Source of the DNA: a virus
Taxonomy: Monodnaviria; Loebvirae; Hofneiviricota; Faserviricetes; Tubulavirales; Inoviridae
DNA: 10,481 nucleotides
Reading direction: 5' to 3' (one strand)
Virus record (IMG/VR): IMGVR_UViG_2671180963_000001
Location: 1-10,481 of that record
Shown here: positions 1-7,555 of the stretch, piece after piece
Numbering within the stretch: position 1 is the first letter of the stretch
Layout: each line of letters opens with the position of its first letter
The notes under the pieces: generated by a model
What the model was told of the DNA's origin: nothing
The model's input: only the letters and a program-made list of their open reading frames with translations
Database searches by the model: none
Translations under genes and position numbers: made by a program

Positions 1-267
1 TCAGCTGTGATCGTCATATTTGCCTGCTTCTGCTTTATTTTTCTGCTGTCGCAGATCATATGCATACTGAAGACGTAACCAAAAATCAGGAGTGCTTCCC
101 ATTATTGCTGCGATCGGAACGGCCTGCTCAGCGGTTAACGCCATTTTCCCTTCTAAAAAAGCTGGCTGGATGCCAGTTTCTTCGATAAATCGGTTAACAC
201 TAATGCCCATCTCAGCCAACTCTCTGGCAATAATTTCGCCCGGATGAGACACATCAAATTGCTGCAT
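1..267 (-). CDS. HigA-family (XRE/COG3093-type) helix-turn-helix antitoxin-like DNA-binding protein, 88 aa
   Basis: Complete ORF: ATG at 267..265, TGA at 3..1. Sequence (HPGEII...NRFIEETGIQ...LEGKMALTAEQAV...GSTPDFWLRLQ) matches my recollection of the HigA/VapI antidote HTH family. SD-like AGGA about 10 nt upstream. An 18-bp perfect palindrome lies 25 bp upstream of the start. Confidence 0.65.
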   Translation of the reverse strand: MQQFDVSHPGEIIARELAEMGISVNRFIEETGIQPAFLEGKMALTAEQAVPIAAIMGSTPDFWLRLQYAYDLRQQKNKAEAGKYDDHS

Positions 268-291
268 AACTAATCATCCTGTCAGATGCGG

Positions 292-309
292 ATTTGCGCA
301 TGCGCAAAT
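292..309. promoter_or_regulatory. 18-bp perfect palindrome ATTTGCGCATGCGCAAAT (copy 1), putative operator between the 104-aa ORF and the HigA-like gene
   Basis: Read directly: its reverse complement equals itself, and an identical copy occurs at 667..684. It sits in the 58-bp spacer just upstream of the HigA-like RBS and start. Confidence 0.5.
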
Positions 310-325
310 TATCACTTTGAGCATG

Positions 326-640
326 TTAGATCGATTGTTCAAAGTAACGGGCCAGAGCCGTATAAATCAGTCGGTTTAACGGTTGTTGATCGTCTTCGGC
401 CTGCTGTTTCGCTCGTTTGATCGTATCCGGATGGAACCAGATCCCCTGATAATCTGAGCCTTTCGGACTGGAGAAGTACCGTATGTGTACATGCCCTGCT
501 TTTCGTTGGTTCAGATACCACTCAACGATTTCACTGGCTATGTCGGCCTTTAACTCATCGCGAATGCCTGCCAGATTATTAACCGGCTGGATTAACTCAT
601 CTTCAATTTTCAGTCGGATAAACTTCAACTTTGTAGCCAT
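326..640 (-). CDS. Hypothetical 104-aa protein immediately upstream of the HigA-like gene; possible toxin partner or phage accessory protein
   Basis: ATG at 640..638 preceded by GGGGA (rc of 645..649); TAA at 328..326. The ORF track extends it to 778 (150 aa) using a GTG that overlaps the pIV stop as GTGA; I prefer the ATG because the palindromic operator and RBS sit directly upstream. I recognise no family. Confidence 0.45.
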   Translation of the reverse strand: MATKLKFIRLKIEDELIQPVNNLAGIRDELKADIASEIVEWYLNQRKAGHVHIRYFSSPKGSDYQGIWFHPDTIKRAKQQAEDDQQPLNRLIYTALARYFEQSI

Positions 641-666
641 AGATTCCCCATAAGAATTGACGAGAA

Positions 667-684
667 ATTTGCGCATGCGCAAAT
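667..684. promoter_or_regulatory. 18-bp perfect palindrome ATTTGCGCATGCGCAAAT (copy 2), putative operator upstream of the 104-aa ORF
   Basis: Identical to the copy at 292..309, located 27 bp upstream of the ATG at 640. Two identical dyad sites before consecutive genes suggest autoregulation by the HTH protein. Confidence 0.5.
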
Positions 685-774
685 CACGCCGTTCATGATT
701 TACACAATCAATCAACAGTCGGTGTCTCAGTACGGCCAGCTCCTCACGGAGCTGCGGGGCTGGCCGCCCTGCTC

Positions 775-1986
775 TCACCGCCTGATTTTTCTGGCCTGAA
801 GTACAATAATGATGTCTGTTTTTGCTTTTTCAGTTGCCGTTGTTCCGAACCATGACGGCAAAAATGACAGGCCCGTATCTGCATTACTGTCTTTATTCTC
901 AGCCAGACCACCAAGTAAAATTATGTCGCCATCCTTGAGCGAAACATCGGTGTTCACCTCCCGTTTAATGAGCGTCGGGCTGTTATTCACCCCAGTCTCT
1001 GTTTTTGCAAAATTAGACAGTTGCTGATGAATATTAAGGTCAATCGTAGCAGCCCGGATTTGCGGCTGAACGTTAAAAATTACGCCACTTGAACGATAAT
1101 CAATGGACTGAACCGGACGACCATCAACATAGCTGACCTGACCGAGTACCGGCACGTCAGATCCCACAGAAAATGATGCTTTAGAGCCATTTCTGACCCG
1201 CAATTGTGGCGAACTGACGACGTGAAAACGGCTGTCTGTTCTGAACAACTCATAAAGTGCATCGAGCGATCCAGAACTGAAACGGACAAAGTTGCTGAGT
1301 CCTTGTGCAGTACCCGTTTCTATTGTGAATTTTCCCGACATAAGTTTGGCAGCCAGTGCCAGGCCAGAACCATTTCGCTCAGACGTCTGAACCTCAAACA
1401 CGTACCCGGCGACAATAACTTCTTCGGCGGCCCGGTCGATAAGAGGAAGCAAATCTTCGACCCGCTGAATGTCTTTTTTCGTACCGTAAAAAACAAGTAC
1501 ATCCCCATTTCTGCTCAAAAAATCGGATGCGGTATTGTCTTTAATCATCGCAGGAGAAACATCGCCATGCCCTATTTGCCCACCATTTGAAAATGACCCG
1601 CTCACTTGTGACTGAAGAATATCAGCCAGATAAGCAACAGAACGGTACTGTGGTGTGTAAACAAATGAATATTTCGGGGCTTCGTATACTTTTTTCTCCT
1701 GGAGATAAAAGTAATCCACACCATTTTTTCTGGCTACAGAGACCCCGGCATTCTGGAGATAACGCATAATAAACGTATACTCATCCATATCTGGCGTAAT
1801 ATTGAAATTAACTTGTCGTTTGTCCGTGATAAGTTCAGGAGAAACCATGAACGGTTTTCTCATAACTTCAGTATAAAACAAAGTAATGGCATCATTAAGC
1901 GTTAATCCTGAGAGATTCAGTATAACGCCTTTTGATAATGCAGGTGGAATCATAAATACCACTATTATGATATAAAATAATTTCAT
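775..1986 (-). CDS. Filamentous-phage secretin (pIV-like, GspD/PulD secretin family), about 403 aa
   Basis: C-terminal secretin domain motifs (SSPQLRVRNGSKASFSVGSDVPV..., TLIKREVNTDVSLKDGDIILLGGL). N-terminal signal peptide from MKLFYIIIVVFMIPPALS. Start taken at ATG 1986..1984 with GGGGG RBS, 1 nt after the pI stop, rather than the track's upstream start at 2034. TGA at 777..775. Confidence 0.85.
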   Translation of the reverse strand: MKLFYIIIVVFMIPPALSKGVILNLSGLTLNDAITLFYTEVMRKPFMVSPELITDKRQVNFNITPDMDEYTFIMRYLQNAGVSVARKNGVDYFYLQEKKVYEAPKYSFVYTPQYRSVAYLADILQSQVSGSFSNGGQIGHGDVSPAMIKDNTASDFLSRNGDVLVFYGTKKDIQRVEDLLPLIDRAAEEVIVAGYVFEVQTSERNGSGLALAAKLMSGKFTIETGTAQGLSNFVRFSSGSLDALYELFRTDSRFHVVSSPQLRVRNGSKASFSVGSDVPVLGQVSYVDGRPVQSIDYRSSGVIFNVQPQIRAATIDLNIHQQLSNFAKTETGVNNSPTLIKREVNTDVSLKDGDIILLGGLAENKDSNADTGLSFLPSWFGTTATEKAKTDIIIVLQARKIRR

Positions 1987-1987
1987 A

Positions 1988-3013
1988 TTAACCCCCAGTA
2001 AAATAGGTGACAATTTCACCATCAATGATTCCACTTAAAGTAAAACCTTCTCCGTCGAACTGATTTGCCGGTAGCGTTCTAAACCGACCATTGCTGTCTG
2101 TAAGAACCACCTTGCTGACATAATCTGATTTTAACTCCCCGGCAATACGCCAGCGCTTTGAGTACGGGACATCAGGTTTCGCAATCTTTGCTGATGAAGG
2201 CAGTACAACTTCCGGTTCGGTATGTTTCGGCTCTGGTACTGACTCACCTCTAATATCCACCCAGACCGTTCTTATTGAATATATAGAAGCCAGTACAATA
2301 AATAATAAAAATGCAATTTTTACCCAAAGAAAGGCGGATGAAAAAACGTTTTGTCTAGAGTCTGTTGTCGCTTCCATTCCGTTAGTGGTTTCATAAGATT
2401 TGTATAATTCAAAAACGGCTTTTTTGTACTGATAGTTACGAGTACTGACTTTATTATTTTTGAATACTTTGGCACCAGAAAAAACATCGACACGATATGA
2501 CTTTGATAGCCCCAGAGATTTTAGCTTGGTCATCCGGTATGTCGATTCAATACGCTCTTTAAGATACCGGGGTACACCATCTACACCCTGATTGATGATG
2601 ACCAAATCACATGATACCCCACTAACAGCATGTGTCATATGACGGTGCATTGAAATAAATCTTTTATGTGCCTCAGATAGTTTTGAGTCCGATGGCCATA
2701 TTGACCATAATTCATCAAGACAAATCAGATCACCATATTCACAAAATGCTGCTTTTTGTTCTGAAGATTCATCATCAGAGTAAAAAGGGAAGAAATCATC
2801 CTTTAATATTTCATCCGTCGATGCGAAAACAACACGACCAGGCTGCTTAGTCTTGAATTTAGAACGACAATACTCATGTATTTTCTCTTCATTTATCCCT
2901 TTGATATTGGTGATTACACGGCGGCCTGCTGAAACCGCAGGGATAATAACACTGTAAACAACCTCGTATGTTTTACCGCTCCCCATCACACCCATATACA
3001 ATGATACAGCCAT
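1988..3013 (-). CDS. Zot-like assembly ATPase (pI-like, zonula occludens toxin family P-loop NTPase), 341 aa
   Basis: Walker A motif GVMGSGKT near the N-terminus and a hydrophobic transmembrane segment (WVKIAFLLFIVLASIY) in the C-terminal half, the typical pI/Zot architecture. Start ATG 3013..3011 lies 4 nt after the pVI stop. Confidence 0.88.
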   Translation of the reverse strand: MAVSLYMGVMGSGKTYEVVYSVIIPAVSAGRRVITNIKGINEEKIHEYCRSKFKTKQPGRVVFASTDEILKDDFFPFYSDDESSEQKAAFCEYGDLICLDELWSIWPSDSKLSEAHKRFISMHRHMTHAVSGVSCDLVIINQGVDGVPRYLKERIESTYRMTKLKSLGLSKSYRVDVFSGAKVFKNNKVSTRNYQYKKAVFELYKSYETTNGMEATTDSRQNVFSSAFLWVKIAFLLFIVLASIYSIRTVWVDIRGESVPEPKHTEPEVVLPSSAKIAKPDVPYSKRWRIAGELKSDYVSKVVLTDSNGRFRTLPANQFDGEGFTLSGIIDGEIVTYFTGG

Positions 3014-3017
3014 AAAA

Positions 3018-3305
3018 TTATCCTATTACCGGAATTCGACGAATAATAAAGCGAGTCACAAAAGCTGAAAGTATTATGTTAATCCCATCTATAACTTTAA
3101 AAACAGAGAAGAAATATTTCAGGCTATCTGGAATACTTGAAATTAACGCAAGAAGTGGGAGTTGGCGATTAACCATATCGAGAATAAGCGGCACGAATTC
3201 CTGCACAATAAAATACAATGCAAAAAACACCGTAAACTTCACAATAACTGAGCGCAATAAAAACCCAAGAACGCCATATAAAACAGAGGTCATGATGCCA
3301 AACAT
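3018..3305 (-). CDS. pVI-like minor coat protein, 95 aa, highly hydrophobic
   Basis: Position between pIII-like and pI-like genes as in Ff phages; strongly hydrophobic composition; AGGTGA RBS. Assigned by synteny and composition, not motif. Confidence 0.6.
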   Translation of the reverse strand: MFGIMTSVLYGVLGFLLRSVIVKFTVFFALYFIVQEFVPLILDMVNRQLPLLALISSIPDSLKYFFSVFKVIDGINIILSAFVTRFIIRRIPVIG

Positions 3306-3314
3306 AAATCACCT

Positions 3315-4580
3315 TTATGCAGAAAGGATAATTCTGAACGCTGCTATTGAGTAAATGAACAGAAAAATAACACCAATCATCGCAGCGTTATTATTTAGTA
3401 ATGTACAATGTGTTTCTAACTTATATTGTCCGTTAAAAACATCCAGTACAGGTTTTGGACACTCCGCATATTTAATTCTTTCGCTTTCTGCATTAAGTGC
3501 ACCGGCTGAATCTTCAAAGGGGTTGAATGATAATAATGGAGATAAAATTTCAGTACCTGCAGGTATATTTTCCAGTTCAGGCGGCCCAATACCAGGATCA
3601 TCACCAAGATTAACCTGTTCTCCTGTCGATGGATTGGTTGGTGTTGTCCCTGTTGTGTCAGCAGGTAGTGTAAAATCGGGTTTGTCTGACGGTTTGAGAA
3701 AGTCAGATACAGCGGGCTTTGCAGCACCAGTTGAAGCAGTTACATCACGCGCTGTCACTGGTCTGGTGTGGTCGTATGCAAAACCAGAATACCCTGCTTC
3801 GGAGGCTGCTTTTTGCCATGCATTATTCACAACATCAGAAATAACTTCTGGCGAAAGATCTGTCTGCATTTCCGTATCTGAAATGCTATTAATAGCATCC
3901 TGTACGCTAACGGTTTTAATTACTTCATTACTACCCGGCACATAATCAGGCTGACATGTAGGCATAACCTTATTTGTACCGCAGGAAACAAGGTTTGCAG
4001 TTCGTGATGCCCAAAGCTGTGTTTTAGATGAATCAATATAAAATTTGATGGTTCTTAAATCAGACCTTGTCGGGTCTGCATTATATTGCTCAACTATGTA
4101 TGTCTGACAGAACGTCGGATTATGCTGGCATATCGACTGAGCTCCCTCAGTTGCTGTAACATAGCTTTCTGCGCCAATATTCCAGTAAAACCCTTTAACA
4201 CCCTGCTCTCCCGTTATTTCTTTTACTTTGATTTGTACGGAGTCCTCAGTTTCAATTAGCCATGCCACCGCACCGGAAGCGGCAAGAGCTATAAGCGTAC
4301 CGCGGCTTAACAAAGCCCCTCTGAGTCCAACTGATAACCACGAACGACCAGAGACACCTGCAACGGTATAAGCTTTCGAACCTGAAGCGGTAGAATTTAG
4401 ATAACCTGAAATACCTTTTAATGTTCCGTAGTATCGAGGATCATTCGCTGAGAAACCACGCTGTGTAATTTTATTTTTAATGGTTCCTGAAATGGTCTGA
4501 TTAATAACAGCTGCGTTCTCTGCACTGTATGAATAAAAGCTAATGATAGATAACAACAATGCAATTAAAAGAGTTTTCAT
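3315..4580 (-). CDS. pIII-like adsorption / minor coat protein, 421 aa
   Basis: N-terminal signal peptide (MKTLLIALLLSIISFYSYSA), internal Pro/Gly/Thr-rich linker (TTGTTPTNPSTGEQVNLGDDPGIGPPELENIP), C-terminal hydrophobic membrane anchor (AAMIGVIFLFIYSIAAF). Strong RBS AGGAGGG upstream of ATG 4580. Confidence 0.72.
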   Translation of the reverse strand: MKTLLIALLLSIISFYSYSAENAAVINQTISGTIKNKITQRGFSANDPRYYGTLKGISGYLNSTASGSKAYTVAGVSGRSWLSVGLRGALLSRGTLIALAASGAVAWLIETEDSVQIKVKEITGEQGVKGFYWNIGAESYVTATEGAQSICQHNPTFCQTYIVEQYNADPTRSDLRTIKFYIDSSKTQLWASRTANLVSCGTNKVMPTCQPDYVPGSNEVIKTVSVQDAINSISDTEMQTDLSPEVISDVVNNAWQKAASEAGYSGFAYDHTRPVTARDVTASTGAAKPAVSDFLKPSDKPDFTLPADTTGTTPTNPSTGEQVNLGDDPGIGPPELENIPAGTEILSPLLSFNPFEDSAGALNAESERIKYAECPKPVLDVFNGQYKLETHCTLLNNNAAMIGVIFLFIYSIAAFRIILSA

Positions 4581-4677
4581 TTACCCTCCTAATCCTTTTA
4601 TTACTGCCCAGGCACAAAGAAGCCCCCAGAGAAAACAGGTAATTAGCCAGAAATGTAATATCACAGAAACTCCTGAA

Positions 4678-4695
4678 GGCAGGGTTTCCCCTGCC
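4678..4695 (-). terminator. GC-rich hairpin (7-bp stem GGCAGGG/CCCTGCC, 4-nt loop) just downstream of the major coat gene; possible attenuator/terminator
   Basis: Inverted repeat read directly, about 8 nt past the pVIII stop on the minus strand. The downstream tract is only moderately U-rich, so termination is weakly supported. An analogous terminator follows gene VIII in Ff phages. Confidence 0.25.
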
Positions 4696-4702
4696 CGTAT
4701 TA

Positions 4703-4924
4703 TCAGGCCCCACGGATCATACGCAGAACTGTTTTTGCCCCGGCAATGGAGGCATAAAGACCAACCAAAATCCCGGCTACGGACATAATTGCCACAATTA
4801 CACTGTCGAATGACACTGCATTAGTCAATGCAGTAAAATCCACTCCGGCAGACTCTGCTGCATTAGCCAGAAAAGGTACTACGGAAGCAATAACAACAGC
4901 TGATTTCAAAATGGTCTTTTTCAT
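4703..4924 (-). CDS. Major coat protein (pVIII-like) precursor, 73 aa
   Basis: Signal peptide MKKTILKSAVVIASVVPFLANA followed by an acidic N-terminus, hydrophobic core and basic C-terminus (KTVLRMIRGA), the classic pVIII layout. Start taken at the internal ATG 4924..4922 (track ORF extends to 5014). Confidence 0.75.
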   Translation of the reverse strand: MKKTILKSAVVIASVVPFLANAAESAGVDFTALTNAVSFDSVIVAIMSVAGILVGLYASIAGAKTVLRMIRGA

Positions 4925-4926
4925 AA

Positions 4927-5145
4927 TTAGGCTCTCTTTATCATATTTAAAACGAGTCCAATACAGTGTGATACTAAATAAAGGACGATTACAGAGGTAA
5001 AAGCAGTTCCCCATACCAGTGCAATATCTTCTGCCGGAGGGAGCTGCTGATATGGCAACTCAGAGGAATTTAATGTTATTATCTGGCAGTTCTGCTCAGT
5101 ATTGCCATCACAAATCTTACCAGTCATTATATTCTGAGAAGCCAT
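4927..5145 (-). CDS. Small membrane protein (72 aa) in the gVII/gIX position; putative minor coat or assembly protein
   Basis: Lies between the gV-like and pVIII-like genes; C-terminal hydrophobic segment (IALVWGTAFTSVIVLYLVSHCIGLVL); RBS AAGGT overlaps the gV stop; its stop is 2 nt before the pVIII start. Confidence 0.45.
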   Translation of the reverse strand: MASQNIMTGKICDGNTEQNCQIITLNSSELPYQQLPPAEDIALVWGTAFTSVIVLYLVSHCIGLVLNMIKRA

Positions 5146-5154
5146 AGCGATACC

Positions 5155-5442
5155 TTATTTAGTCTGTTCTTTATTTTCCTGATATGGAATCAGAACGATT
5201 CTTCCTACCCGTAATTTCTGGAAATCACCGACGTAAATACTGGATGGATGTAATGTATATAATCCCGCCGGGTATGGTGCCTGACCCGCGTCAAGATTCA
5301 ACTTGAAGAGTTGTGGATAATCCTGGCCAAGAAAAATATATGCAGACTGCTCATTAATTGTATACGCCTGCCCGGTCGACTTCGACACGCCAGAACGCGT
5401 ATCGGCAATGGCCTGAGACTGTTTAATTTCAATCTTAATCAT
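5155..5442 (-). CDS. ssDNA-binding protein (gene V protein-like), 95 aa
   Basis: Recognisable similarity to M13 gene V protein as I recall it (MIKVEIKPSQAQFTTRSGVSRQGKPYSLNEQLCYVDLG...GLYTVHLSSFKVGQF versus MIKIEIKQSQAIADTRSGVSKSTGQAYTINEQSAYIFLG...GLYTLHPSSIYVGDF). AGAGGA RBS. Confidence 0.9.
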   Translation of the reverse strand: MIKIEIKQSQAIADTRSGVSKSTGQAYTINEQSAYIFLGQDYPQLFKLNLDAGQAPYPAGLYTLHPSSIYVGDFQKLRVGRIVLIPYQENKEQTK

Positions 5443-5454
5443 TTAAATATCCTC

Positions 5455-6570
5455 TTATGCAACATGCAAATAACGTGGTTTCACATACCATGATGGAATA
5501 AAGCATTCACTTACTGATACTTCTCTCACTTTCTTAACAATAACGGGGCTAAATTTGGAAATATTACACCGCTGAGCAATGTCAATACCTATTTTTCTAA
5601 GCCTGGCACGATGGGTTTGCACCTGTGTTTTAGAAAAATCAAATGAGTGACCGTGCATCCACTGGATAGCATACATCGCAGTGGTATTCGCTGATCGAGT
5701 TGAGTCAACAATGCCTTCACTGATTAAATGTTCACTAATCGTTTCAAAATCCATCGACGTCACCATAAGCTTTTTATCAAGAGCTAAAAAATCATCATGT
5801 AAATTATTGAGTATTGAATAGTCGGAAAGCCCCCAGTAAATAAGATGGTTACGTTGCAGATACCGGGATTTAAGTTTTTGCTCAAATCTGACTACGCCCT
5901 GTTCCTGACAGAAATCAATAATCTTTTTGATGTATGAAACTTCAGCTGATGAATCCCCGAATTTATTCTTTATTTTATTAAGGGAGTGAAGCTTAATTTC
6001 ATGTGCTTTATTATATACAGTCGGATAAATGAGCAAGGCGTTTCCTTTTTTGGATAGCCAGTCAACTGATTTACCGTTGCTGTGTAATCGCGGCTCACTA
6101 TTGCGATACCGTAATGTTGAAAGGCCCGATATATAGTCATCTACATTATCTGCTCCGACTGTTCGGTTGGATGTAATGTGAATTTCACGAATACATGCGC
6201 CATCAGTAACCGTTCCGGCCTTTTCAGTTTCACTTGCCTGTCTCTGCCACAATTTCGTACATTTTGTGAATTCCGGCAGACCAAGGTCATTCAGGATCCG
6301 GTTGTATACCTGTACACAGGCATCAACAGAAGTGTGACCAAACAAATTGTCCAGTCTGTTCCATCGGGATGGATTTCCCGACATTTTCAGAATCGAACCT
6401 TTAATCGATATCGAAACCTGATCGCAAAAAGATCCTTTATGTTGAAACACAGGCTGATTCAGTGAACCGGCCTCCCCTGTTTCAAGCTGAATGCGCTGAT
6501 AAGCCACTTCACCCAGGATAGGAAGCTGGTAACCAAAGTCCTGTTCGATGGTAAGCCAGTCAAAAAACAT
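5455..6570 (-). CDS. Rolling-circle replication initiation protein (gII-like), about 371 aa
   Basis: Similarity to Ff gene II protein in the C-terminal half (VRFEQKLKSRYLQ resembles M13 VRFEARIKTRYLK). Start taken at ATG 6570..6568 with GGGAG RBS. The track's start at 6654 is a TTG with no RBS and falls inside a putative promoter. Confidence 0.8.
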   Translation of the reverse strand: MFFDWLTIEQDFGYQLPILGEVAYQRIQLETGEAGSLNQPVFQHKGSFCDQVSISIKGSILKMSGNPSRWNRLDNLFGHTSVDACVQVYNRILNDLGLPEFTKCTKLWQRQASETEKAGTVTDGACIREIHITSNRTVGADNVDDYISGLSTLRYRNSEPRLHSNGKSVDWLSKKGNALLIYPTVYNKAHEIKLHSLNKIKNKFGDSSAEVSYIKKIIDFCQEQGVVRFEQKLKSRYLQRNHLIYWGLSDYSILNNLHDDFLALDKKLMVTSMDFETISEHLISEGIVDSTRSANTTAMYAIQWMHGHSFDFSKTQVQTHRARLRKIGIDIAQRCNISKFSPVIVKKVREVSVSECFIPSWYVKPRYLHVA

Positions 6571-6629
6571 GTGTCTCCCGGAATTGACGCGCAAGGGTCT
6601 AAACTGATCTTTAACGGTGTCAGTTATAC

Positions 6630-6685
6630 TAAATTGGAGAGATCTCAGTGTCAATATAATTGATACCGTAAAATGTCAAAACTGA
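6630..6685. promoter_or_regulatory. Divergent, overlapping promoter region between the rep gene and the CI-like regulator gene (putative genetic switch)
   Basis: Minus strand: TTGACA (rc of 6674..6679), 15-bp spacer, TATATT (rc of 6653..6658), driving rep. Plus strand: perfect TATAAT at 6655..6660 with a weak -35 TTGGAG at 6634..6639, driving the regulator. Motif-level only. Confidence 0.35.
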
Positions 6686-6720
6686 CCCTCGGTGTCAGCA
6701 TGCTAAAAACAGGAGGTAGA

Positions 6721-7206
6721 ATGAATGCCTGTATGAATAAAACAGAGAGTTCACTGGTAATGGCAGCAGACAAAGCATGCGCAGAAAGGATCAAACAATC
6801 GATTCTTCAGAACTTCACGTACGATGATATTGAAAATGAAACCGGGATCAGTGTCAGTACATTGAAACGCCTGGCATCTGGTGACCGTGAACCGAAACTC
6901 ATCGAAATTCGACAGATTGCAAAAGCTACAGGAAGGAATCCGGTTTGGTTGGCGTTTGGAAACGACGCAGGTTATGAAATTGAAACCGTGTCCGCAGATA
7001 TGAAATTAGTTGAGCCAACAGCCAGGTACGAAATTAAAGGAGCTACAGATAGCTCAGCCGATCATGAAGTAAAGATCAGGGTCATCGCTGCGATAAAAGA
7101 CATGCGTTTGGAAGATGTTGTTTTTATTGAAAGAATGACAGAGTTACTCAATCTCCAGAATACAATTCAGAACATTTCTGGACGAAAAATGAAGCCGCCA
7201 AGATGA
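6721..7206 (+). CDS. Phage CI-like repressor family HTH regulator, 161 aa
   Basis: HTH region ETGISVSTLKRLASGDREPKLIEIRQIAKATGRNPVWLAFGND resembles the phage CI-repressor N-terminal DNA-binding domain. Transcribed divergently from rep. Start taken at ATG 6721 four nt after AGGAGG (6711..6716); the track starts at 6673. Confidence 0.6.
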   Translation: MNACMNKTESSLVMAADKACAERIKQSILQNFTYDDIENETGISVSTLKRLASGDREPKLIEIRQIAKATGRNPVWLAFGNDAGYEIETVSADMKLVEPTARYEIKGATDSSADHEVKIRVIAAIKDMRLEDVVFIERMTELLNLQNTIQNISGRKMKPPR

Positions 7207-7213
7207 TAACGTG

Positions 7214-7258
7214 CCCCGGGAAACCGGGGTAAAGTTCGGGTGTCACAGAACCCCGAAC
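7214..7258. other. Cluster of GC-rich hairpins in the regulator/ORF76 spacer
   Basis: Hairpin 1 at 7214..7229 (CCCCGG GAAA CCGGGG, GNRA-type loop). Hairpin 2 at 7234..7258 (GTTCGGG, 11-nt loop, CCCGAAC). No U-tract follows either, so they are not canonical terminators. Confidence 0.4.
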
Positions 7259-7324
7259 CGCTTCGCGGCACAAAATCGACAAAACACAGCAGTAATACCC
7301 CACTACCTTTCGAAAGGATCAGAA

Positions 7325-7555
7325 ATGCATAACGAAATTGAGAAGTGGCTGAATGAACAAGCCAATGATAATCCAGTTGCGCGAGCTGAACTGGCAAGAA
7401 CTCTTGTCAAAAAAGTTTATGATTTTGTTAAGTTTAATCGCCCTGAGGGTGAGGGGCTGGATGGTCGTGATGGCCCGGAAAGGCAAAGTCTGGCTAAAAT
7501 TGTTGATGCAGCAGAAGATCACTATATAAACATGTGCGAAATAAAAAACAAGTAA
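7325..7555 (+). CDS. Hypothetical small protein, 76 aa
   Basis: ATG 7325 six nt after AGGA (7315..7318); TAA at 7553..7555. The track ORF starts at 7211, probably at a non-ATG codon. No family recognised. Confidence 0.45.
   Translation: MHNEIEKWLNEQANDNPVARAELARTLVKKVYDFVKFNRPEGEGLDGRDGPERQSLAKIVDAAEDHYINMCEIKNK

Follow-up and report, generated by a model that had tools for sequence, protein, structure and literature searches.

A probably intact temperate filamentous prophage at the dif site of Escherichia coli, with modules resembling those of three inovirus lineages

Which kind of filamentous phage is carried by the 10,481-nucleotide (nt) sequence of IMG/VR record IMGVR_UViG_2671180963_000001 (positions 1 to 10,481, hereafter the window), and is this phage complete? 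A preliminary description had considered positions 775-6654 as a complete, Ff-like inovirus gene set (Ff being the group of M13, fd and f1), belonging to a potentially functional phage that could be related to the dif prophages CUS-1 and Ypf. We consider the window to represent one copy of a temperate, intact inovirus ~9.2-9.3 kb long that is integrated at dif, works in the way of the cholera toxin phage CTXΦ and combines parts of three lineages; the probability that we assign to this reading is roughly 0.85. The window is chromosomal DNA of E. coli. Its right end is represented by hipA (8893-10272) and hipB (10215-10481), strain LD39-1 matches the whole of it at 99.2%, and the G+C content is 35-44% in the phage vs 47-49% in hipA.

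Core genes and the relatives of each module

Proteins were assigned to families by means of profile searches with Pfam, PHROG (phrog_ entries) and NCBIfam, and by pairwise blastp against named phages; homology to inovirus proteins was found in both ways. The eight open reading frames (ORFs) listed earlier are all present, in canonical order and on the minus strand, each with the expected inovirus profile match (Table 1); for gIII the match was obtained with PHROG, the Pfam profile search being without result. The features by which a filamentous phage is recognized are thus in place, i.e. a Zot/pI-type ATPase, a small major coat protein, and a replication initiator (Rep, the gII product) together with a single-stranded DNA (ssDNA)-binding protein in a genome within 5-12 kb. 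The gene starts proposed earlier were retained for all genes but gII. In this case the start is probably ATG at 6570 (371 amino acids, aa) rather than TTG at 6654, since the profile alignments start at residue 29 and the RefSeq form is the 371-aa one from ATG 6570. The stop-to-start gaps from gII through gIV are 12, 9, 2, 122, 9, 4 and 1 nt, hence the spacing of 1-12 nt previously given for the junctions applies to six of them and fails at gVIII-gIII. A recognisable Shine-Dalgarno sequence precedes most of the core genes.

The morphogenesis proteins are 30-62% identical to those of CUS-1-like phages. Precisely, in blastp comparisons with the MS20655 phage (a third E. coli dif phage that we used) and with CUS-1, identities were 62% and 53% for gIV, 43% and 42% for gI (of equal length), 52% and 51% for gVI (over the full length) and 57% and 52% for gVIII. 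Against M13, gIV was 25% identical, the gI match was represented by the first 37 residues, and gIII, gVI and gVIII had no significant match save the gVIII signal peptide. Met213 of gI is a possible pXI-like start, at most a suggestive one. As for gIII, its C-terminal 200 aa are 32% identical (E 2e-28) to CUS-1 gIII, named PuvA in the literature, with C-terminal motifs conserved in the alignments; for the N-terminal part, relatives were detected only inside a small enterobacterial family.

One 72-aa protein and a 27-aa ORF stand in place of Ff gVII and gIX. The 72-aa protein is 30% identical (blastp, E 1e-8) to the 83-aa membrane protein of CUS-1 in the equivalent position, and is a candidate counterpart of the Ff tip proteins pVII and pIX. 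The 27-aa ORF, unannotated in RefSeq both for the window phage and for CUS-1, has the motif LWG(L/I)(L/V)(C/S)A..V..GL.G, which is kept before gIII in CUS-1 of strain UTI89; in the region of the MS20655 phage that we read, the beginning of this motif (LWGLLCA) occurs at the equivalent position before gIII. Both of the two substitutions that separate this ORF from its copy in strain TO73 are synonymous. We counted it as a ninth core gene, coding for a candidate minor coat protein. The GC-rich hairpin lying in the same 122-nt gap is likely an attenuator or a terminator, by analogy with the one after Ff gVIII; a simple terminator scan did not call it.

The replication genes have other relatives. 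Rep is 100% identical to the TO73 protein (371 aa each), 72% identical to If1 ORF320 in blastp (70-72% across comparisons) and 46-52% identical to inovirus proteins annotated as RstA1 or as replication protein. A tblastn search of all phage records with a threshold of E 1e-5 returned If1, Alteromonas phage phiAFP1, gut genomes named 'Inovirus' and 'Dulem virus', and Pseudomonas phages (RstA1), and did not return any Ff phage. With M13 gII, blastp gave E 0.026 over 15 aa, and with CUS-1 gII the match was confined to the C-terminal 80 residues (E 1e-3). The stated resemblance between this gII and that of M13 can therefore be kept at the level of the family, i.e. of the Pfam G2P domains, and not at the level of blastp or tblastn. 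These comparisons place Rep in the RstA family of CTXΦ, and neither in the Ff gII type nor in the CUS-1 type. The likeness of gV to the M13 protein was instead borne out (53% identity over 86 aa, E 5e-28, blastp), and CUS-1 gV gave no blastp match with it.

In the If1 record (NC_001954, locus L003, region 7250-8432) the replication initiator is the ORF annotated as 'ORF320; homologous to R-pyocin'. The homology to the window Rep runs upstream of it, in a second frame, into the annotated 'minor intergenic region'; a frameshift or a wrongly called start in this record is probable.

A megablast search against 50,697 phage records found no relative of the window phage beyond a match of 53 bp, which corresponds to an element of three successive hairpins on the phage plus strand. 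This element has an identity of 96% with a stretch of the major intergenic region of If1, of 98% with Alteromonas phage phiAFP1 and, over 36 nt, of 92% with a pre-CTXΦ sequence in the position of Ig-1, which in CTXΦ is placed next to rstR (PMC8265649). An alignment of five copies has an invariant core of 33 nt, followed by a hairpin with compensatory stem changes (CCCCGG/CCGGGG in the window, CCGTGG/CCACGG in If1). The exact core was present in 21 IMG/VR contigs, and 19 of these encode a Rep with 71-75% identity to the one under study, ~300-700 bp downstream of the core and in equal orientation, irrespective of the structural genes. The core was absent from the loci of CUS-1, the MS20655 phage and M13, all without this Rep. 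In CTXΦ, RstA nicks Ig-1, Ig-1 and rstA are enough for rolling-circle replication in E. coli, and phage production requires two copies of Ig-1 (PMC8265649). Considering the homology to Ig-1, the co-occurrence with Rep, the absence from loci lacking Rep and the literature on RstA and Ig-1, we assigned the element as the putative plus-strand origin. An Rfam search did not find any family in the window. We had also considered the element as a primase-type complementary-strand origin, an idea prompted by its GCGAAGC mini-hairpin, presumably a mark of such origins, alongside the 526 plasmid matches described below; this was set aside given the homology to CTXΦ Ig-1 and the tight linkage to Rep. The element may have a dual role, as plus-strand and complementary-strand origin.

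The repressor gene is divergent from gII. Its product is 57% identical to a CUS-1 helix-turn-helix (HTH) protein over 65 aa of the N-terminus, scored far under the cut-off of the NCBIfam profile phage_RstR, and, by analogy of position, would be the counterpart of CTXΦ RstR. In the control region between the two genes there is a promoter match facing gII (6654-6626), with a -35 TTGACA, a spacer of 17 nt and a -10 TAGTAT. Three (G/A)GTGTCA repeats and an imperfect inverted repeat of 35 nt, 71% complementary, lie within 6594-6698 and are candidate operator sites. No LexA box was found in the control region, hence a CTXΦ-style SOS control is unsupported. The dif prophage of E. coli PEC148 (locus L007) has a Rep 74% identical to the one of the window and the same origin core, with a 62-aa regulator instead of the 177-aa repressor; from this comparison, the repressor appears to have been exchanged independently of Rep.

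On the sequence comparisons, then, the phage is a three-way mosaic, with morphogenesis genes and attachment site (attP) of CUS-1/YpfΦ type, Rep and origin of If1/RstA type and gV of Ff type. The term Ff-like fits its gene order and gV, and does not fit its morphogenesis genes, which are CUS-1-like, nor its Rep.

Table 1. Features of the prophage and its accessory regions, in window coordinates (a dot in the strand column: no strand assigned)
Feature	Coordinates	Strand	Description
HigA-family antitoxin	1-267	-	88 aa; TIGR02607 E 3.6e-15, above the curated cut-off
orf104	326-640	-	104 aa; weak Arc/ribbon-helix-helix-like C-terminus; hypothetical protein in TO73
gIV	775-1986	-	outer-membrane secretin, 403 aa; PF00263 E 7e-25; phrog_1012 E 1e-123
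gI	1988-3013	-	Zot-type assembly ATPase, 341 aa; Walker A GSGKT, one membrane helix; PF05707 E 1.7e-25; phrog_197 E 1.5e-65
gVI	3018-3305	-	minor coat protein, 95 aa; DUF2523 E 1.5e-13
gIII	3315-4580	-	adsorption/termination protein, 421 aa; signal peptide, C-terminal anchor; phrog_7187 E 1.5e-46
27-aa hydrophobic ORF	4581-4664	-	GTG start, AGGAG Shine-Dalgarno; abuts the gIII ATG
GC-rich hairpin	4678-4696	-	GGGCAGGG GAAA CCCTGCC; directly after gVIII, read from the sequence
gVIII	4703-4924	-	major coat precursor, 73 aa; phrog_2186 E 2e-18; signal peptide, acidic N-terminus, hydrophobic core and basic C-terminus as read from the sequence
72-aa protein	4927-5145	-	C-terminal membrane helix; phrog_3679
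gV	5155-5442	-	ssDNA-binding protein, 95 aa, Ff-like; PF02303 E 2e-24
gII/Rep	5455-6570	-	rolling-circle initiator, RstA/If1 type, 371 aa; Pfam G2P N- and C-terminal domains (PF05144, PF05155) E 1e-7 and 7e-26; phrog_702 E 4e-103
Divergent control region	6571-6672	.	between the repressor gene and gII; putative function
HTH repressor	6673-7206	+	177 aa, divergent from gII; HTH_3 E 6e-7; phrog_3557 E 3e-24
Putative plus-strand origin (Ig-1 homologue)	7218-7270	-	three successive hairpins on the phage plus strand
orf76 (cargo)	7325-7555	+	76 aa
orf364 (cargo)	7628-8722	+	364 aa; predicted two-pass membrane protein, two beta-sandwich domains
CTX-type attP, now the hipA-side junction	8723-8816	-	two inverted dif-like sites around a GC hairpin

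Integration, extent and conservation of the prophage

The insertion site is the E. coli dimer-resolution site dif, between hipA and yneL and adjoining hipBA. A search for canonical dif with at most three mismatches found none in the window, the junction having the XerC arm alone plus phage sequence; we located the hipA-side junction by reading the sequence and by a looser dif search. It has two inverted dif-like sites, one at 8723-8749 on the plus strand and one at 8789-8816 on the minus strand. The XerC arm at 8806-8816 (GGTGCGCATAA) and the sequence to its right represent the chromosomal side of dif, the sequence to its left the phage. On the phage coding strand, that is the packaged one, attP folds as a forked hairpin with a central bulge of 6 nt and a predicted energy of -33.4 kcal/mol vs -12.2 for shuffled sequences (z = -8.9). 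An equivalent structure is found at the phage-phage junctions of TO73 and LD39-1, which carry the complete attP, and in UTI89 on the side of CUS-1 that faces hipA; at the far end of the array a perfect dif (GGTGCGCATAATGTATATTATGTTAAAT) is restored in both TO73 and UTI89. Inverted XerCD sites, a restored dif, tandem repeats and variable ORFs at the ends have been described for YpfΦ (PMC4266046). The earlier suggestion of a CUS-1/Ypf relative at dif is thus supported by the insertion beside hipA, by its orientation and attP hairpin, and by the morphogenesis proteins.

A stretch of ~45 bp beside the XerC arm, at the phage-phage junctions and at the distal end, has ~93% identity with the spacer that separates dif from hipA on the chromosome (positions 8817-8859 of the window, and 11527-11571 and 2310-2367 of the TO73 locus L002). 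From this likeness the phage carries a copy of the sequence flanking dif in the host, and CUS-1 in UTI89 does not.

The functional phage is larger than 775-6654, because the repressor, the plus-strand origin, two cargo genes and the CTX-type attP are added by 6673-8816; in this respect, the set described as complete was not so. The window begins at the HigA stop codon; past its left edge is the distal ~0.5 kb of the unit, made up in sister genomes of a 59-aa ORF and of the attP or dif that comes next. In the arrays of TO73 and LD39-1, a unit measured from attP to attP is 9.2-9.3 kb long and has, in phage orientation, the origin, the repressor (antisense), Rep, gV, the 72-aa protein, gVIII, the 27-aa ORF, gIII, gVI, gI, gIV, orf104, HigA, the 59-aa ORF, attP and the cargo.

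The preliminary description had also suggested that the phage is not a decayed remnant, frameshifts or premature stops being what could overturn this. The 7,268 bp of window positions 1-7268 align without gaps to both tandem copies of TO73, with 18 substitutions. Sixteen of these are coding and 12 of the 16 synonymous, including all four in gII; the structural genes are under purifying selection. Across the core, this alignment had no frameshifts, premature stops or truncations, and the lengths agree with those of homologues (gI, 341 aa here and 341 in CUS-1; gVI, 95 and 95).

The core was found at ≥99% identity in 9 of 5,426 complete E. coli genomes (~0.2%). All six carriers for which the copy number was read have two to four matching places per record (two or three in EC4, OW967975 and PCP06021). 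Adjacent tandem units were confirmed in TO73 and in LD39-1, the latter also with the edge of a further unit. About 150 further E. coli genomes have more distant, secretin-containing dif phages, such as CUS-1. As regards gIII, close relatives are confined to E. coli and Salmonella, with more distant ones in Yersinia enterocolitica and Pectobacterium; its 90%-identity cluster has 153 members, the representative, recorded as a protein of E. coli, being 100% identical to gIII of the window, and IMG/VR holds two partial contigs with a 100% identical gIII. In one NCBI assembly, a contig of 7,680 bp corresponds to the conserved part of the unit, as collapsed tandem repeats would give. In E. coli A37, a circular 'plasmid' of 7,439 bp (NZ_CP195780.1) codes for a secretin, a Zot and a DUF2523 protein. 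It has the look of a related inovirus whose replicative form was taken for a plasmid at assembly, which would indicate that relatives are active.

Proposed life cycle and alternative readings

We derived the steps of a possible life cycle from the biology of CTXΦ and YpfΦ. The packaged plus-strand ssDNA would fold attP, the host XerC would exchange one pair of strands with dif, and replication would then fix the insertion irreversibly; the prophage would be stable, because double-stranded DNA cannot present the attP hairpin. The divergent HTH repressor would silence the gII promoter. Upon derepression Rep would nick the origin, at about 7240, and synthesis would proceed leftward through the core and the accessory genes, a circular plus strand being freed only at a second origin downstream, i.e. 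in a tandem copy. By analogy with CTXΦ, the virion output of the window copy would thus hinge on an origin beyond the edge of the window. The gV protein would coat the strand, and pI and pIV would drive its extrusion across the envelope as it acquires the coat proteins. In such a virion, the core would stem from the upstream unit, and attP and cargo from the unit downstream of it, which would explain why units with identical cores differ in their cargo. Lying upstream of the first origin, orf76 and orf364 would be stranded and not packaged from this array.

Several observations weigh against an intact and functional phage. Virions, a replicative form and excision are predictions for the window phage, and so are the position of the nick, the operator sites and the roles given to the 72-aa and 27-aa proteins. 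The distal junction is outside the window, and the second origin and the restored dif were seen in sister genomes only. For a pX-like protein, no internal start stood out clearly in gII. No fold match was obtained for the receptor-binding part of gIII (a predicted local distance difference test score, pLDDT, of 66.8 for the model, and no PDB match with E <0.1); with a moderate model and no PDB match, binding to TolA or to a pilus cannot be stated. PLSDB did not contain a plasmid-like replicative form of the window phage. This last result, the position of the only origin in the window upstream of the core and the distal end outside it, also agree with a prophage that is genetically intact and yet non-productive, i.e. 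a copy that stands alone or last in an array, has no further origin downstream and is retained on account of its accessory genes, as with CTXΦ in classical V. cholerae; in fact, the last unit of any array is non-productive by construction (PMC8265649). We regard such a prophage as unlikely, although it has to be kept in mind: two to four copies were found in 6 of 6 sister genomes with the copy number read, purifying selection acts on the structural genes, and the 153 members of the gIII cluster suggest spread and not a fossil. A decayed, cryptic remnant is hardly credible. Many E. coli genomes do retain just an origin, cargo and attP beside hipA, but here neither frameshifts nor stops nor truncations affect the genes, Rep has 100% identity between strains and most of the changes are synonymous; the window copy may nevertheless have a loss-of-function change in a regulatory site.

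The remaining readings place the phage in a known group. An integrated phage of the M13/fd type could account for the canonical gene order, the M13-like gV and the Pfam G2P matches. It is very improbable given that neither blastp nor tblastn matched gII significantly to Ff gII, that gIV is so distant from M13, gI matches over its first residues and gIII, gVI and gVIII not significantly, and that the locus has no gVII/gIX pair and has instead a repressor, an attP and an RstA-type origin, none of which is found in Ff. As far as blastp goes, it is refuted for the morphogenesis and the replication-initiator genes. We give equally little credit to a strain of CUS-1/YpfΦ. The two are inserted at the same site and in the same orientation as the window phage, their genes, small ORFs included, follow the same order, and their attP hairpin is nearly identical; a homologous N-terminus of the repressor and homologous cargo (orf364 and orf369) are further likenesses. 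However, DNA similarity to CUS-1 of UTI89 is 68% and limited to 360 bp, protein identities are 30-53%, gV does not match, Rep matches in its C-terminal 80 residues only, and CUS-1 is without an Ig-1-like core. Between CUS-1 and YpfΦ the identity is 99% (PMC4266046), so that the window phage, whose nucleotide identity to them is far below the species threshold, is well outside that species. We therefore retain the reading as an intact, temperate mosaic phage of the CTXΦ way of life.

Accessory genes, significance and comparison with known systems

At the left end of the window, a perfect 18-bp palindrome (ATTTGCGCATGCGCAAAT) is present in two copies, at 292-309 upstream of the HigA gene and at 667-684 upstream of orf104, where none is expected by chance; the two copies are probably operators for a shared regulator of these genes. 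All profile matches of orf104 were sub-threshold (phrog_3180 E 0.002, DUF6364 E 0.008). Apart from these, PADLOC, Pfam and NCBIfam gave nothing for orf104, orf76, orf364 or the 59-aa ORF found after HigA in sister genomes.

The hipA-side cargo is represented by orf76 and orf364 in both the window and LD39-1. The orf364 protein is 32% identical to orf369 of CUS-1, in the equivalent position, and has homologues in Enterobacter, Proteus and Providencia; its model (pLDDT 82.6) matched generic beta-sandwich domains only in the PDB. In TO73, the two units have identical cores and different cargo, a 358-aa protein near hipA and MltR with DUF2971 in the second unit (L002, 10102-11434), where the DUF2971 protein matches the PADLOC candidate defence family PDC-S31 (E 4e-48) and the MltR-family gene adjoins it. 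Elsewhere in E. coli the slot contains TIR-domain, STM4504 or TolA-C-terminal-domain proteins, and core-less remnants, composed of origin, cargo and attP, adjoin hipA in many genomes. The cargo of one such remnant, in E. coli MS 115-1 (locus L008), includes an STM4504-family protein and one with a TolA C-terminal domain, with insertion sequence elements abutting the origin; a TolA-domain protein at the site of a filamentous phage may be an exclusion factor.

In PLSDB, 526 plasmids, mostly conjugative, match portions of the stretch from origin to attP (7218-8817). Five of these matches were inspected, one being a tandem inovirus prophage and four being core-less segments of origin, cargo and attP. 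The plasmid loci concerned are L010, L011, L034 and L035. On IncF plasmids of Enterobacter, orf76 and orf364 occur together (87% DNA identity), 340 bp from a Xer-like site of the plasmid; a 316-kb Klebsiella plasmid has a tandem If1/IKe-like inovirus with the same family of Rep; and further copies have a TIR-domain protein or HTH genes. Positions 7271-8722 could be a general, exchangeable cargo slot, with modules of origin, cargo and attP that pass between phages with different cores, stay behind as remnants and reach the Xer sites of plasmids. Virions from an array would pair each core with the attP and cargo of the following unit, which speaks for such an exchange; even so, we put this forward only tentatively and consider it rather doubtful. 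If the slot genes acted against phages or in superinfection exclusion, inoviruses of RstA type would be a dedicated shuttle of defence cassettes between chromosomal termini and plasmids in the Enterobacterales.

The phage of the window is an undescribed and rare mosaic within a well-understood class, related to CUS-1/YpfΦ and to the cholera toxin phages; the literature on dif-integrated filamentous prophages of E. coli that we covered deals with CUS-1, YpfΦ, UPΦ and CTXΦ, and does not describe it. It represents a third, rare lineage of dif-integrating filamentous prophages in E. coli, besides CUS-1/YpfΦ and UPΦ. It leaves unchanged the accepted understanding of how such phages work, and clearly shows an independent swapping of the replication module (origin, repressor, Rep and gV), the morphogenesis module and the module of integration plus cargo among inoviruses of enterobacteria and Vibrio. 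The origin core, common nearly base for base to If1, an Alteromonas phage and CTXΦ, is a simple marker for replication modules of RstA type. Some relatives (CUS-1, YpfΦ) affect fitness and virulence and others carry cholera toxin, hence the parts that merit attention are the HigA-family gene and the slot for accessory genes.

As compared with the Ff phages, the likeness is in the overall gene order, in gV and in the export pair of secretin and Zot-type ATPase. Ff phages are non-temperate, have neither attP nor repressor, and differ in Rep, in origin and in having the gVII/gIX pair; the similarity across all genes, this pair and the episomal, non-integrating life cycle that mark the Ff group are absent from the window phage. 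If1 (Infulavirus) shares Rep and, at 96% identity, an origin element of 50 nt. Its structural genes are instead Ff/IKe-like, with gVII and gIX, and with gI and gIV unrelated at this level: besides Rep, the only matches were a weak one of gIV (21% identity, E 8e-13) and one of gI (E 0.006). No counterpart of attP was found in If1 by DNA comparisons, no scan aimed at dif-like sites having been made in it.

UPΦ of the Enterobacterales (Shapiro and Putonti 2020) is likewise a dif-integrating, tandem and mosaic phage with variable ORFs at the ends (PMC7307601). The mosaic is a reciprocal one, because in UPΦ the structural genes are IKe/I2-2-like and gII and gV are Ypf-like, with h1/h2 as accessory genes, and its published description sets the window phage apart from it (PMC7307601). 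CUS-1, hosted by E. coli O18:K1:H7, and YpfΦ, hosted by Yersinia pestis, are nearer. They have the same insertion at dif beside hipA in equal orientation, a near-identical attP of two inverted dif-like sites and the same gene order, including a membrane protein of 70-80 aa and a small hydrophobic ORF before gIII, together with a restored distal dif, tandem arrays and variable ORFs at both ends of the genome (PMC4266046). The window phage differs in that its replication module is replaced (If1-type Rep, Ff-like gV and Ig-1-type origin), in its own accessory genes HigA and orf104, and in an unrelated N-terminal region of gIII, for which reason the receptor probably differs. With this lineage it therefore has in common the integration at dif and the morphogenesis module, and not the replication genes or the near-identity of DNA.

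From CTXΦ of Vibrio cholerae the window phage differs in its host, in an Ff-type gV rather than RstB, in a cargo that is not a toxin, in the control region, where no LexA box was found, and in encoding its own secretin, gIV, whereas CTXΦ uses EpsD of the host. In common with CTXΦ it has a Rep of the RstA family and a homologous origin core beside a divergent repressor. Further shared traits are a plus-strand attP that folds as a forked hairpin, an insertion with one hybrid junction and, opposite to it, a restored dif, and the arrangement in tandem arrays (PMC8265649). With this attP, and with an RstA-family Rep and Ig-1 beside a divergent repressor, it has the features of a CTX-type, Xer-exploiting element.

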